From positions 266,749-330,748 of the forward strand of contig CAVZJB010000008.1 in NCBI GenBank assembly GCA_963775425.1: a stretch of 64,000 nt of DNA, in the 5' to 3' direction. This document shows positions 55,416 to 63,496 of the stretch, one piece after another (within the stretch, counting starts at the first letter, position 1; every line of letters begins with the position of its first letter). Made by a program: the position numbers and the translations under genes. Source of the stretch: an uncultured delta proteobacterium (lineage in GTDB: Bacteria; Myxococcota; UBA727; VGSZ01). The notes under the pieces were generated by a model. It had not been told where the DNA came from. It did not search any database and was given only the letters and a program-made list of their open reading frames with translations.

Positions 55416-57515
55416 TCAGCTCCGCCGCTCGAGGGAAGGCCGCACGAAGCGCTCCCAGAACGCCGCCAGCGCCGGCCGCGCGCCGATGCGGGTGAGCGGC
55501 GGCAGGGTCTCGAGGAAGACACGGCCGTAGCGCTTCTTGCGCAGGCGTCCGTCGAGGACGGCGACGATGCCGGCGTCGTCGACGTCGCGCAAAAGCCTCC
55601 CCGCGCCCTGCTTGAGCGAGAGCGCCGCCTCCGGGAGCGCGATGTCGTTGAAGGGATCCCCGCCTCGCTGCCGGCACAGGTCCGCGCGCGCGCGCCGCAG
55701 CGGATCCGTGGGCACGTCGAAGGGCAACCGGTCCATCACCACGAGGCGCAGCGCGCGGCCGCGCACGTCGACGCCCTCCCAGAACGAGCGCGTCGCACAC
55801 AACAAGGCGCCGGTCTCGCCGTCGTGCGCGCGCAGCTCGTCGAGGAGCTTCTTCTTTTGCATCTGCCCTTGCTTCAGCACGGGCACGCCGAGCGCCGCCG
55901 CCGCGGGCAAGAGGGCCGCGTGCGCCTCGTCGAGCGCGGCGTTGCTCGTGAACAAGAAGAGCGCGCCGCCGCGGGTGGTCTCGAGGAGGAAGCGCATCTC
56001 GTCGAGCAGCGCCTCGCCGTACTTCGCGTGGTTCGGCTCCGGCATCTCCTTCGGGCAATAGAGCGCCGCGCGCCTGGCGAAGTCGAAGGGCGAGGGGAGC
56101 ACGGCGCTCCTGGTGCCGGCCGCGGCCCCGATGCGCGCGAGGAAGGGCGCGACGTCGCCGGCCACGGCCAGCGTGGCGCTCGTCATCACCACCGGCTGCT
56201 CCATGCGAAACAGCGACGACGACAGCGCCGCCGCCACGTCCACGGGCGCCGCCGTCACCACCGCGCCGCGCCGCGTGGGCTCGCTCACCACGACGTAGCG
56301 CGGGTCCTCGAGCGCCTTGTGCAGCACGAACTCGATCTCGCCGCGCGCGGTGTAGGCCCGCTCGAGGAGCCGCAGCCGCTCCGCCATGCGCGTGGCCGCG
56401 TCGGGCCCGCCCGCGAGGTTCTCGTCGGGCAGCGCGTCGAGCACGCCGTGCAGCGACGCGAGCGCCTCCGCCGCGCCGTCGATGAGCGACCGCGCCGACG
56501 ACGGCAACACCAGGCGCGCCCGCTCGCGCTCCCGCGACGGCACCGACGCCATCAACCGCTCGACGCGCTCCTCGGCGCCGATCATCGCGTCGAGCACCGC
56601 GGCGCGGTTGTCGCCGCCGAGGCCGTCGGCGTGCTTGCGCACGTCGCCAAACAGACGCATCAGCGACGCGCTCCCCACCGAGACGCCGAAGTAGTCGCTC
56701 GCCACCTCGGGAAGCGCGTGGGCCTCGTCGATGACGTACGCGTCGACGTCGGGGAGCACGTGGGCCAGCGCGCCGGCCCAGGTGCTCTCCCCGCTCTCGC
56801 CGTCGGAGGATGCGTCGCCCACCGGTGTGGCCGCGAGGCGCAGCCGCATGTCCGCGCACAGCAGGTGGTGGTTGGCGATGACGAGGCGCGCGCCCTCGGC
56901 CCTTCGCTTCATCTGCACCACGAAGCACTTCTCGTAGTGCATGCACCGCGTGCCGATGCACGTCTCGCTGCCGCAGTCGAAATCGCTCCAGGCGACATAG
57001 GGATCGGGCAGGCCCTCGATCTCGGCGCGGTCGCCGGTCGTGGTGCGCTCGGCCCAGCGCTGGATCTGCACGAGCTCCTTCGCCTCCGCCGAAAACGCGA
57101 ACGTCGGTTGCAGCGAGAAGCGCTCGAAGCGCAGCTTGCACAGATAGTTCTGCCGGCCCTTGACGAGGACGGCGTCGCGCTCGGGGTCGAGGCCGTCGTG
57201 GTCGCCGAGGAGGTCGGCGACGGCGGCGAGCGCGAGCGGGACGTCCTTGGTGTAGAGCTGGTCCTGGAGGGCCTTGGTCCCCGTGGTCACCACCACGCTC
57301 TTTTCGGCGAGCAGCGCGACGGCGAGGTACGCGAGCGACTTGCCCGTGCCGGTGCCGGCCTCCACGGCGAGGCGGCGGCCGCCGCCGCCGGTGAGCGCGT
57401 CGGCGACGGCGTGCGCCATGTCGATCTGCGCGGTGCGCGGCTTGTACCCGGTGAGCCGCTTGTGGAGCGGGCCGTCCGCGGCGAAGAACGCGTCGACGGC
57501 GCCGTGCAGCGTCAC
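55416..57515 (-). CDS. dinG: ATP-dependent DNA helicase DinG (Rad3/XPD-like, Fe-S)
   Basis: Walker A AGTGTGKSLAYL, DEAH-box VIDEAHAL, a Cys cluster (CGSETCIGTRCMHYEKC) and C-terminal helicase motifs. The GTG start overlaps the upstream stop. Confidence 0.85.
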   Translation of the reverse strand: MTLHGAVDAFFAADGPLHKRLTGYKPRTAQIDMAHAVADALTGGGGRRLAVEAGTGTGKSLAYLAVALLAEKSVVVTTGTKALQDQLYTKDVPLALAAVADLLGDHDGLDPERDAVLVKGRQNYLCKLRFERFSLQPTFAFSAEAKELVQIQRWAERTTTGDRAEIEGLPDPYVAWSDFDCGSETCIGTRCMHYEKCFVVQMKRRAEGARLVIANHHLLCADMRLRLAATPVGDASSDGESGESTWAGALAHVLPDVDAYVIDEAHALPEVASDYFGVSVGSASLMRLFGDVRKHADGLGGDNRAAVLDAMIGAEERVERLMASVPSRERERARLVLPSSARSLIDGAAEALASLHGVLDALPDENLAGGPDAATRMAERLRLLERAYTARGEIEFVLHKALEDPRYVVVSEPTRRGAVVTAAPVDVAAALSSSLFRMEQPVVMTSATLAVAGDVAPFLARIGAAAGTRSAVLPSPFDFARRAALYCPKEMPEPNHAKYGEALLDEMRFLLETTRGGALFLFTSNAALDEAHAALLPAAAALGVPVLKQGQMQKKKLLDELRAHDGETGALLCATRSFWEGVDVRGRALRLVVMDRLPFDVPTDPLRRARADLCRQRGGDPFNDIALPEAALSLKQGAGRLLRDVDDAGIVAVLDGRLRKKRYGRVFLETLPPLTRIGARPALAAFWERFVRPSLERRS

Positions 57516-61288: not shown

Positions 61289-63496
61289 TCACAAGCTGTC
61301 GAGGTCCACGTCCTCGGCGATGGGCACCGTGCGCGTCACCGCCGGAGGCGGCGAGGCCTGGGCGTGGCGCTCGGCGGCGAGCCCGTGGGCCCACGCGCGG
61401 ACGTCGACCGCGGGGCGCGACGCCAGGAGCTCCTCGAGCTCGAGCTGCAATTCCTGGGCGCTGCCGTGGCGCTCCTGTGGATCGCGGGCCCCCGCGCGCA
61501 GCAGGATGGCGTCGAGCTCCGCGGGCGCGTCGTCGCGCAGCGACGTCATGCGCGGCAGCGGCTCGCACAGGATGGCCCGCAGCGTGGGCACGATCTCGCG
61601 CCGCAGAAAGGGCGCCCGCGACAGCGCCGCGTACAGCGTCATCGCCATCGAGTAGACGTCGGAGCGGATGGTGGCCTTGCGGCCGTCGACGACCTCGGGC
61701 GGGAGGTACGCGGCCTTGCCCTTGACCATGCCGCGCTCCTCTTCACCGGTCTGCGTGACGTTCTGGGCGCGCGCGATGCCGAAGTCGGTGAGCTTCACGT
61801 CGCCGCTCGACGACACGAGGATGTTCTGCGGCGACACGTCGCGGTGCAGGATGGGCACGATGTTGCCGTCGCGGTCGTGGGCGGTGTGGGCGGCGTGGAG
61901 GCCGCCGCAGGCGTCGGCGACGATGCGGCAGGCGACGTCGACAGGCACCGGCAGCTTGAGCTTCTTGCTCCGGCGCAGGAGCTCGCCGAGGTCGCAGCCG
62001 TCGACGAGCTCCATGGCGAGGTAGAGGTCCTCGGCCGCCTTGCCGACGGTGAAGACGCGCACCACGTTCGGGTGCTGGACGCGCCGCGCGAGGCGCGCCT
62101 CGTCGAGGAACTGCCTGGCGAAGGACGGATCGGCGCGGTGAGCCGGCAGGATGCGCTTGATGGCGACGACGAAGGACGGGTCGTCGGCGGCGCGGCCGCG
62201 GAACACCTCGGCCATGCCGCCCTCGCCGAGCTTCTCGAGGATCTCGTACGCGGCGCCGCCGCGGCGCGGGAGGTTGGCGGTGCGGCGGCGATACGCGCGC
62301 TCCACCTTGCTGCGCAGCTCCTCGGCGCGCCCGAGCAGGTACGGGCGCACGCGCGCCGCGGGGATGGCGCGCGGATCCAGCTCGGCGAGGCGCGCCTGGT
62401 AGCCGCGCTCGATGGCGCCGGGCGCGGCCTCGACGTCGACGCCGAGGATGACGTCGTCGTCGCGCTCGGGCTTGAGCTCCACGTAGAGCGAGAGGATCTC
62501 GTTGGCGCCGCGCTCGGGCATCTGCGCCAGCACCGACAACGACGCGTCCGCCTGCACCAGCTTCGGCAGCGGGCTCTCCTGCGCCTGCCGCTTGCCGGGC
62601 GCGCCCTCTTCGCGGGGGCGGTTCAACAGCTCGACGAGCCCGGTGTCCGCGAGCGTGCCCAGGACGAGCCCGCCCATGAGCGGATCGAGCCGCGTGAGGC
62701 GGTACAGCTCGGACGCGGGCACCGTGCCGTCGACGACGCCGCCGAGGTCGACGTGGCCCGTGAACGAGCGCAGGCGCGGCGCGACGTTGGCGAAGCCCTC
62801 GAGCGGCGCCGGCGTCTTGCCCGCGAGCGCCTCGCCGAGCCGCAAGAGCGCGTCGGGCGCGAGCCGCTTTCGGCGCGCTTCGAGCACGAGGCCGAACGGG
62901 TTCACGGCGGTGAGCGGCGTGTGCTCGGCGAAGTCGACGTCGTCGAAGAAGCGCCAGGAGCCGCCGGTGGCGTCGATGACGGCGCGGGCGAAGTCGCGGA
63001 CGGCGTCGCGCAGCGCTTCGAGCACCGGCACGGGTCGCGCGAGCCGGTGGCGCACGAGGAGCGCGGGGACGCTGGTCATCGCGCGCCGCTGCTTGTCGCG
63101 CGCGGCGGCCGCGTCGGCGAGCGCGGCGCGCTCTGCGAGGCGCGCGACGAGGGCCTCGTCGGCCTCGGGGGAGGCCGCGTGCACCGGCTCGCCGTGCAGG
63201 AAGAAGAGGGTGCCTCGCGCGGGCGCCGTGGCGCCGCCGGGGGCCGCCGCGCCGGGGAAGGGCAGCTCGACGAGCAGGCGCCCGGTGCGCTCGTGGACGA
63301 ACAGATCCATGAGGAGCCGCGCGCCCGCTCCGGCCTCGAGCACGCCCGTCTGCCCGGGCAACACCAGCGACGGATCCGTGGCCCCGCCTGCCCCCTCGTC
63401 GTCGAGCTCGAAATCCGTGGGCACCGGCGCGCGCACCACGTGCGCGCTGGACGGATCGTCCAGCTCGACGCGCGCGACGTCGTCTCGTTCGGGCAT
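61289..63496 (-). CDS. Ser/Thr protein kinase, paralog of the 58309..60417 gene (same DUF4388-like/J-like/kinase architecture)
   Basis: Collinear with the downstream kinase: ARLLMDLFVHERTGRLLV, ILGVDVEAAPGAIERGYQARLAELDPRA, GEGGMAEVF, HRDVSPQNILV, DFG. The start is assigned to M at 63496. Confidence 0.8.
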   Translation of the reverse strand: MPERDDVARVELDDPSSAHVVRAPVPTDFELDDEGAGGATDPSLVLPGQTGVLEAGAGARLLMDLFVHERTGRLLVELPFPGAAAPGGATAPARGTLFFLHGEPVHAASPEADEALVARLAERAALADAAAARDKQRRAMTSVPALLVRHRLARPVPVLEALRDAVRDFARAVIDATGGSWRFFDDVDFAEHTPLTAVNPFGLVLEARRKRLAPDALLRLGEALAGKTPAPLEGFANVAPRLRSFTGHVDLGGVVDGTVPASELYRLTRLDPLMGGLVLGTLADTGLVELLNRPREEGAPGKRQAQESPLPKLVQADASLSVLAQMPERGANEILSLYVELKPERDDDVILGVDVEAAPGAIERGYQARLAELDPRAIPAARVRPYLLGRAEELRSKVERAYRRRTANLPRRGGAAYEILEKLGEGGMAEVFRGRAADDPSFVVAIKRILPAHRADPSFARQFLDEARLARRVQHPNVVRVFTVGKAAEDLYLAMELVDGCDLGELLRRSKKLKLPVPVDVACRIVADACGGLHAAHTAHDRDGNIVPILHRDVSPQNILVSSSGDVKLTDFGIARAQNVTQTGEEERGMVKGKAAYLPPEVVDGRKATIRSDVYSMAMTLYAALSRAPFLRREIVPTLRAILCEPLPRMTSLRDDAPAELDAILLRAGARDPQERHGSAQELQLELEELLASRPAVDVRAWAHGLAAERHAQASPPPAVTRTVPIAEDVDLDSL

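Follow-up and report, generated by a model that had tools for sequence, protein, structure and literature searches.

The window analyzed here is a stretch of 64,000 nucleotides (72-78% G+C) from an uncultured delta proteobacterium of the Myxococcota (contig CAVZJB010000008.1), and its subject is a set of five co-directional minus-strand genes at positions 55416-63496. In order of transcription these encode a Ser/Thr kinase (K2), a Cys-rich lipoprotein, a second kinase paralogous to the first (K1), a DUF2167 protein, and a helicase of the DinG family; a gene for an FHA-domain protein lies divergently upstream of K2. Genes were called by third-position G+C (GC3), and all five are of the coding type (GC3 0.92-0.96). 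Are they one functional unit, as an original prediction from the sequence alone had it, or neighbors with separate histories? Comparison with related loci favors the latter: the region probably consists of two older modules with local additions, namely a kinase/FHA-activator pair that was duplicated locally and now abuts a clade-specific helicase operon. Outside this genome the FHA-kinase pair and the membrane-protein/helicase operon recur, whereas the kinase-lipoprotein-kinase triad, the direct DUF2167-helicase junction, and the five-gene set as a whole were not found elsewhere. Because the triad and the direct coupling are seen in the window genome only, the five-gene cluster is best taken as a lineage-specific juxtaposition and not as a conserved system.

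Of the functional links in the region, that between kinase and FHA protein appears to be the best supported. Comparison loci came from a scan of GTDB species representatives, which gave five loci from three metagenome-assembled genomes (MAGs), and from protein look-up, which added RBG_16_71_12 (L002), a Myxococcota MAG (L017), and a short ENA contig (L018); a metagenome scan contributed only two further short contigs, both copies of the RBG_16-type locus. In all seven related contigs that are informative on this point (L002, L005, L006, L008, L012, L017, and L018) the FHA gene is divergent from the kinase gene and just upstream of it, at an intergenic distance of 50-110 nt. By in-frame tblastn the FHA N-termini in these contigs are 69-79% identical to that of the window, and the kinases paired with them are 55-72% identical to K2. 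Two clades of related kinases can be recognized: clade A holds those linked to FHA genes in the other MAGs, and clade B holds the second paralog of these MAGs. The FHA domain (69-79%) is more conserved than the kinases, whose identities are 52-57% with clades A and B and 60-72% with the closer relatives P0001 and P0002. It is because the pair is divergent and conserved in all informative genomes, and the FHA domain more conserved than the kinase, that we infer a functional link; the divergent FHA gene had already been singled out in the original prediction as encoding a typical kinase substrate or partner, and the related contigs bear out the partnership. The paralog-B kinase of L007 also has an FHA-sigma54 activator, in this case immediately downstream.

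What kind of protein is the partner? The part of the window gene at 63570-63998 matches Pfam FHA (56.5 bits), and its N-terminus is 74% identical to that of an L005 protein with FHA, Sigma54_activat, and HTH_8 domains. In related full-length FHA proteins Sigma54_activat (236 bits) is likewise present, along with a weak HTH_8 match. The window gene is thus predicted to encode an FHA-sigma54 activator, the AAA+ and HTH parts being assigned from homologs that are 69-79% identical in the N-terminus. FHA domains bind phospho-threonine. In the mechanism that we propose for this first module, a soluble Hanks kinase would work with a divergently encoded sigma54 enhancer-binding protein that has FHA as its sensory domain. 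Input would reach the kinase by protein-protein contact at its N-terminal module and control kinase activity; the kinase would phosphorylate itself or the activator; the FHA domain would read the phospho-threonine; and this binding would gate the AAA+ activator and hence sigma54-dependent transcription. Protein-protein contact is also the means by which the PATAN domains of PatA-type regulators act (bioRxiv 10.1101/2021.06.11.447907).

Full-length identity between K1 and K2 is 60% (BLASTP), and their Pkinase scores are 127.9 and 124.9 bits, respectively (PF00069, cut-off 31.7). The Gly-rich loop (GEGGMAEV), the Lys of VAIK/VAVK, the Asp of HRD, the catalytic Asn, and DFG are intact in both. 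A search for transmembrane segments found none in K1 or K2, and both kinases are predicted to be soluble. It is of note that the clade A kinases are moreover non-RD (HCDVSTQN). The description of the two proteins as paralogs in which a DUF4388-like domain and a J-like segment lacking HPD precede a Hanks kinase proved correct, with support from an AlphaFold2 (AF2) model, from Foldseek, and from DUF4388 matches in 19 of 19 aligned family members (best E 1.3e-11). The DUF4388/PATAN domain (PF14332) scores 17.7-21.3 bits in the window kinases (21.2 in K2) against a Pfam cut-off of 25; the relatives P0029, P0074, and P0095 reach 30-35 bits. The AF2 model of K1 residues 1-386, built from the 19-sequence alignment, has a predicted local distance difference test score (pLDDT) of 82.8 and a predicted TM-score of 0.80, and opens with a beta-rich domain into which helices are inserted, followed by a helical middle region, a flexible linker, and a C-terminal helical bundle. 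In the PATAN region, modeled with a pLDDT of about 90, strands occupy residues 33-37, 56-82, and 146-153, with inserted helices at 113-141; Foldseek found no solved PATAN structure with which to compare it.

How common is this arrangement? A word-indexed search with the N-terminal module returned 17 relatives, of which four are kinases and 13 are REC-type proteins of about 600 residues that open with a REC-like domain and then have the identical order of PATAN and J-like domains. An exhaustive phmmer search of 1.84 billion representatives of clusters defined at 50% identity gave 106 clusters at E <= 1e-3, and at least nine of these unite DUF4388 with Pkinase. Kinases with PATAN and J-like domains accordingly make up a rare yet genuine small family; no published description of the architecture was found in the literature searched. 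The REC-type relatives (P0005-P0017, e.g. L003 10001-11782) all end in C-terminal NPF, NPW, or DPY, and the linker after their REC-like domain has a conserved FNPF(D/E)MPSTED. This combination of terminus and linker suggests a short linear docking motif.

The prevalence of REC-like domains fused to the PATAN and J-like module in most relatives raises the question whether the kinases act mainly through PATAN on polarity or type IV pilus machinery, in which case the adjacent FHA gene would reflect coincidence or co-expression. Cyanobacterial PATAN proteins that act on such machinery offer an analogy, and over a dozen PATAN proteins occur in Myxococcus xanthus, where social motility depends on one of them, SgnC (bioRxiv 10.1101/2021.06.11.447907). 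However, we identified no pilus or Mgl genes next to the kinases in the inspected loci, and the presence of an FHA gene beside kinases of only 52-72% identity in seven of seven contigs would be surprising if the two were not linked in function. We therefore think it unlikely that polarity or pilus machinery is the main target. That said, such a role and kinase-to-FHA signaling are compatible, since PATAN could serve as the input.

The history of the two kinase copies can be read in part from their neighbors. A second kinase paralog also exists in related genomes, where it lies on a separate contig; among the loci examined we found no other with a kinase-lipoprotein-kinase order, with tandem kinases, or with a Cys-rich lipoprotein gene adjoining a kinase gene. 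In a neighbor-joining tree of 542 well-aligned columns, calculated without support values, K1 and K2 cluster with P0001 and P0002 and fall outside clades A and B. Identities over the trimmed columns are 64% between K1 and K2, 69-72% between K2 and P0001/P0002, and 52-57% between either window kinase and clades A and B. A kinase phylogeny had been suggested as a way to date the duplication, and this tree does so in relative terms: the K1/K2 duplication appears to be specific to the window lineage and independent of the A/B duplication, and would be older than the split from the organisms of P0001 and P0002. K2 retains the ancestral upstream neighbor (the FHA gene) and K1 the ancestral downstream neighbor (DUF2167), and the C-terminal tail of K1 (IPIIDLGDG) resembles the clade A tail (IPIFDLGGQD), as in-situ tandem duplication predicts. 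The window lineage would thus have duplicated its kinase gene in place, with a gene for a disulfide-rich lipoprotein between the copies.

One of the comparison loci appears to have been rearranged itself. The RBG_16_71_12 kinase is 90% identical to that of L005 and its downstream region differs. Behind this clade A kinase, L002 carries a block that adjoins the clade B kinase in an NC_groundwater MAG (L007) and comprises a 2Fe-2S thioredoxin-like gene, a gene for a large secreted protein (MxNRS...), and a second FHA-sigma54 activator gene (94% identical). No clade B kinase was seen on the RBG_16_71_12 contig despite this block from the clade B side, which indicates that L002 arose by a rearrangement joining clade A and clade B loci.

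The lipoprotein between the two kinases belongs to the local additions. Its length of 255 residues and its nature as a lipoprotein were rightly called in the original prediction; its Cys count, put there at about 30, is 27. Its predicted signal peptide (MRTRYDRVVAPRLAAFAAVFALLFSAGC) ends in a lipobox of the form L-[AS]-[GA]-C (here LFSAGC), behind which lies a Pro-rich tether. Eight homologs at 49-53% identity were found; the lipobox Cys is invariant in all nine sequences, as are 25 of the 27 Cys residues. The protein matches no Pfam or NCBIfam family, and a fold search with its AF2 model (pLDDT 70.9) gave no significant match: EGF-like Pfs25, TNFR-type Cys-rich domains, and toxins of the Dickkopf/colipase fold came up at E >= 0.065 with low probability and were rejected. 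Horizontal transfer of the gene was also considered, but its GC3 (0.92, against 0.95-0.96 for its neighbors) is not distinctive. The homologs occur in four differing neighborhoods without flanking kinases (with Lar_N and radical SAM genes; with TPM phosphatase and GH57 genes; in an uncharacterized operon with toxin-antitoxin and TonB-dependent receptor genes; and beside a gene for a 1044-residue protein), and one of their contigs has an unrelated kinase gene 4 kb away on the opposite strand. The lipoprotein gene is thus a stand-alone gene outside the window genome, and the idea that the kinase-lipoprotein-kinase triad is conserved does not hold.

The second module begins with the DUF2167 gene. 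The window protein scores 31.6 bits with DUF2167 (PF09935, cut-off 25) over profile positions 114-207 only; its N-terminus is signal-like, and a transmembrane anchor lies toward the C-terminus, hydrophobicity being highest at residue 234. Its alignment with DUF2167 proteins of 304-309 residues from L006 and L008 runs from end to end, with internal deletions of about 44 residues in total, and the syntenic homolog in L006 scores 201 bits; a word-index search with the window protein returned only the query itself. The helicase has Helicase_C_2 (PF13307, 131.5 bits), a DEAD-like N-terminal motor, and, as read from the translation, a Cys cluster at the position of the Fe-S domain (CKLRF...CGSETCIGTRCMHYEKC). 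Among NCBIfam models YoaA (NF053712) is the best, with a full-length match of 583 bits (cut-off 680), ahead of the DinG models (NF008729), which give 323-327 bits against cut-offs of 598-789. As all these scores are below the cut-offs, the protein is classed only as a member of the DinG family. The family assignment in the original prediction therefore stands, with YoaA as a closer match than DinG proper.

In L005, L006, and L008 the order is kinase, DUF2167, a gene for a 385-residue polytopic membrane protein, helicase, small lipoprotein, and LOG, with helicases 60% identical to that of the window. The 385-residue protein has a C-terminal zinc ribbon (CxxC...CxxC) and no Pfam family. Its gene follows DUF2167 by 4-8 nt and its stop overlaps the GTG start of the helicase gene by GTGA; DUF2167 in turn starts about 125 nt after the kinase stop. 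We searched the whole window for the 385-residue gene and found it absent. The coupling of a membrane-protein gene to the helicase gene by GTGA, noted originally for the window, is therefore found in the three MAGs as well, but the membrane protein directly coupled there is the 385-residue protein and not DUF2167. Likewise, the DUF2167-helicase pair is conserved in these MAGs with the 385-residue gene in between, and was not seen in the proteobacterial records examined: the two DUF2167 genes annotated there, on plasmids or chromids of Bradyrhizobium and Caballeronia, lie in tra or nitrate-transport contexts with no adjoining helicase gene, and a third, unannotated record (Burkholderia) has no helicase match in a 10-kb stretch, in what is a small and biased sample of DUF2167 contexts. 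DUF2167, the 385-residue gene, and the helicase gene thus appear to form a separate, clade-specific unit. In the window lineage this unit would have lost the 385-residue gene and parts of DUF2167, and the space before it would have shrunk until DUF2167 met K1, with the result that all five genes are now probably co-transcribed. We know of no report of translational coupling to a membrane-protein gene for YoaA or DinG.

Several observations weigh against the division into these two modules, or at least against parts of it. The paralog-B kinase of SJ783 (L004) has no FHA activator gene next to it. A search near the cluster genes for sigma54-type promoters (TGGCAC-N5-TTGC, up to two mismatches) found none, matches being fewer than in shuffled sequences. 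The catalytic-loop Lys of HRDxKxxN is replaced by Ser in K1 and K2 (HRDVSPQN) and is Ser in all 15 family members inspected, so that kinase activity has to be assumed. The tree on which the duplication history leans carries no support values. Finally, only two independent lineages are informative for the second module, that of the window and clade A; within clade A identities are as high as 85-92%, and conservation of the module could reflect shared ancestry instead of selection. For these reasons the reading, although we consider it probable, should be taken as provisional.

The layout of the cluster in the window genome is compact (Table 1). The original prediction noted that the five minus-strand genes are separated by short gaps or overlaps, and the junctions confirm this: K2 and the lipoprotein gene are 37 nt apart, the 66-nt gap between the lipoprotein gene and K1 contains a Shine-Dalgarno-like site (GGGAGAA), and DUF2167 and the helicase share four nucleotides (GTGA), the overlap that had been reported; one further overlap, of a single nucleotide (TGATG), joins K1 to DUF2167. 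For K2 the longest open reading frame (ORF) reaches a TTG at 63556, and the deposited model P0028 (735 residues) corresponds to the ATG at 63496. A scan of 52000-64000 for sigma70-like promoters gave TTGCCA-17-GACAAT as the sole match (0.1 expected), and no intrinsic terminator-like site was seen on the minus strand of 55416-63556. Given this tight packing and the lack of a terminator-like site inside the cluster, together with the single promoter-like site, transcription of all five genes as one unit is plausible. In the intergenic region between the FHA and kinase genes (50-110 nt; 63497-63569 in the window) clade A (L005, L006, L008, and L002) has a similar element, TTGCGC...CACAAT, and this -35/-10-like element may be a common kinase promoter.

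Table 1. Features of the region, in window coordinates unless another locus is named
Feature	Position	Strand	Remarks
FHA-domain sigma54 enhancer-binding protein gene, 5' part	63570..64000	+	Divergent from K2; extends past the window end; start ATG 63570
Sigma70-like promoter match, TTGCCA-17-GACAAT	63528..63556	-	Consensus match only; upstream of the K2 ATG
K2, PATAN (DUF4388) + helical middle + J-like + Hanks Ser/Thr kinase, 735 aa	61289..63496	-	
Cys-rich lipoprotein, 255 aa	60484..61251	-	
K1, second PATAN + J-like + Hanks kinase paralog, 702 aa	58309..60417	-	
Shortened DUF2167 protein, 265 aa	57512..58309	-	Start overlaps K1 stop
DinG-family (YoaA-like) Fe-S helicase, 699 aa, GTG start	55416..57515	-	Start overlaps DUF2167 stop
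Amidase gene, convergent with helicase	53285..55354	+	Pfam Amidase 317.7 bits at residues 247-665 of longest ORF
Small lipoprotein gene, conserved-synteny marker	53015..53578	-	49% identical to the gene directly 3' of the helicase in L005
LOG-like gene, next in synteny block	52461..53015	-	54% identical to L005 16973-17539
385-aa polytopic membrane protein gene	L006 13202-14359; L008 6517-7674; L005 13217-14374		Between DUF2167 and helicase

Could the five genes nevertheless serve one pathway, in which a signal from the envelope is sensed by the kinases, the exported lipoprotein, and the membrane-bound DUF2167 protein, and these in turn recruit or control the helicase and so couple the envelope to DNA repair? 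The tight packing, the two overlaps, and the terminator-free minus strand are what such a pathway would lead one to expect, as is the occurrence of kinase, DUF2167, and helicase genes as neighbors in three other MAGs, in which the gene before the helicase always overlaps it by GTGA. The distribution of the genes argues the other way. The triad is confined to the window genome and the lipoprotein family is found in four unrelated contexts; RBG_16_71_12 keeps the kinase and the FHA activator with other genes downstream; and the two annotated plasmid DUF2167 genes lack a helicase neighbor. Besides, soluble kinases without a transmembrane segment would make no direct contact with exported proteins, and the block appears to have been hit by three insertions or deletions in the window lineage (gain of K1 and the lipoprotein gene, loss of the 385-residue gene, and insertion of an amidase gene). 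Taking both sides together, we consider a single pathway quite unlikely. A possible regulatory consequence of the juxtaposition is that in the window genome the helicase would be expressed under the kinase promoter. A bolder idea is that the YoaA-like helicase of this clade acts at the membrane with the exported DUF2167 protein and, ancestrally, the zinc-ribbon protein, and that in the window organism it has been placed under the PATAN-kinase/FHA-sigma54 circuit; this we regard as a long shot.

The J-like segment of the kinases deserves separate treatment, for a working J-domain would recruit DnaK/Hsp70 to the kinase or its substrates. Foldseek matched the C-terminal bundle of the K1 model to J-domains with a probability of 0.96-0.99 and a TM-score of up to 0.73 on the target, at E-values of 0.6-1 because the matched stretch is short. 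The matches include 6rzy_A (probability 0.99, TM on target 0.73, root-mean-square deviation 3.0 over 70 residues), 2qsa (0.96), 2cug (0.96), and the DnaK-bound J-domain 5nro_B, so that bona fide J-domains are among the matches. A profile of the segment gave only sub-threshold matches to PDB sequences, all of them J-domains (dnj-12, mKIAA0962, and Sec63; E 0.1-0.8). Pfam DnaJ (PF00226), in contrast, has no match in K1 or K2, and the corresponding segment of a REC-type homolog reaches 16.7 bits (cut-off 27.8). The profile alignment with dnj-12 (E 0.1) places an invariant DPR on its HPD; this position reads DPR in all kinase-type members and DPR, DPA, DPG, DLD, or DAL in REC-type members. A J-like domain without HPD is thus supported by the predicted structure and not by sequence statistics. 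HPD is needed for stimulation of the Hsp70 ATPase, and since it is replaced in every member the domain probably does not stimulate Hsp70; that it works as a J-domain is very unlikely.

The possibility that the tandem arrangement is an artifact of metagenome assembly is hardly credible: the window does lie on just one contig, of 419 kb, and in the protein collection the proteins of this contig are singletons, but a protein identity of 60% between K1 and K2 is too low for mis-joining, GC3 and reading frames are continuous across every junction, and an independent Logan contig (L001) reproduces the 3' end of K1, DUF2167, and the helicase gene at 100% identity.

Downstream of the helicase, the order small lipoprotein-LOG seen in the comparison loci is continued in the window, with the amidase gene between helicase and small lipoprotein. 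As tblastn found no match to the amidase in L005-L008, it appears to be a lineage-specific insertion at this point. In its longest form the amidase ORF runs into the small lipoprotein gene of the opposite strand (53015-53578). The true start is probably near 53950-54000, well downstream of 53285, because the Pfam match opens only at residue 247. Farther along the minus strand, 41830-50061 encodes a predicted lipoprotein or secreted giant protein of 2743 residues, and the start of its gene overlaps the stop of an upstream gene for a PEGA-domain protein of 319 residues (50058-51017). Near the other end of the window a protein of about 1200 residues (2173-5853, plus strand) and a protein of similar length in L005 (17633-21193, minus strand) both open with a zinc-finger-like MQI(A/S)CPQCQA(N/Q)YNVDE, which hints at a wider gene content common to the window genome and the clade A MAGs.

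What follows if the two-module reading is right? The cluster as a whole would be what duplication, insertion, and deletion ordinarily produce in a genome with many kinases, and current understanding would stand. Its parts are of more interest. The kinase and its FHA-sigma54 activator make a concrete, testable pair; to our knowledge there are few defined pairs behind the idea that Ser/Thr kinases drive myxobacterial FHA activators. Input through PATAN and J-like domains could tie PATAN-type protein-interaction signaling to transcription. The operon of DUF2167, membrane protein, and helicase would be the first reproducible genomic partner for DUF2167, in one clade only. Should the helicase indeed act at the membrane and have come under the kinase circuit, envelope sensing and Ser/Thr phosphorylation would be tied to DNA repair in a way not known before.

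Comparison with known systems places most of these proteins near familiar ones. The DUF2167 protein has the Pfam match above threshold, the signal-like N-terminus, and the C-terminal anchor of other PF09935 proteins; it differs in being about 44 residues shorter, and linkage to a helicase is seen in the Myxococcota clade and not on the plasmids examined. The helicase resembles the XPD-like Fe-S helicases YoaA and DinG of Escherichia coli in its Helicase_C_2 domain, DEAD-like motor, and Cys cluster (C...CGSETCIGTRCMHYEKC), although at 583 bits against an equivalog cut-off of 680 it is YoaA-like by similarity only, and in this clade it is coupled to a membrane-protein gene. The J-like domain is comparable to that of the mouse "pseudo DnaJ" mKIAA0962 (PDB 2cug), which turned up in both the fold and the profile matches and in which the J fold is likewise helical and the HPD loop degenerate; the window domain differs in its place between PATAN and kinase and in a sequence similarity that is sub-threshold (E 0.1-0.8).

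The PATAN part is comparable to that of the cyanobacterial PATAN-REC proteins PatA, PixE, PixG, and PilG, with which it shares a DUF4388 domain with a helical insertion, and most relatives of the module do combine a REC-like domain with PATAN. Unlike the PatA type, the window proteins have PATAN ahead of the J-like domain and the Hanks kinase and lack a receiver domain; in the loci inspected no pilus genes were identified near them. The REC-type relatives, moreover, carry their REC-like domain at the N-terminus, and PatA carries its own at the C-terminus. The closest precedent for the first module as a whole comes from M. xanthus, in which FHA-domain sigma54 enhancer-binding proteins were reportedly proposed by Jelsbak, Givskov and Kaiser in 2005 to be under Ser/Thr kinase control. 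The mechanism suggested here for kinase and FHA activator matches that proposal. Both cases involve an NtrC-like AAA+ activator with FHA in place of the receiver domain, in a kinase-rich Myxococcota genome, and both would read phospho-threonine instead of using a His-Asp relay. What sets the present case apart is that the kinase has a PATAN and J-like N-terminus and that, in each of the informative genomes, the activator gene lies beside a gene of one particular kinase family.

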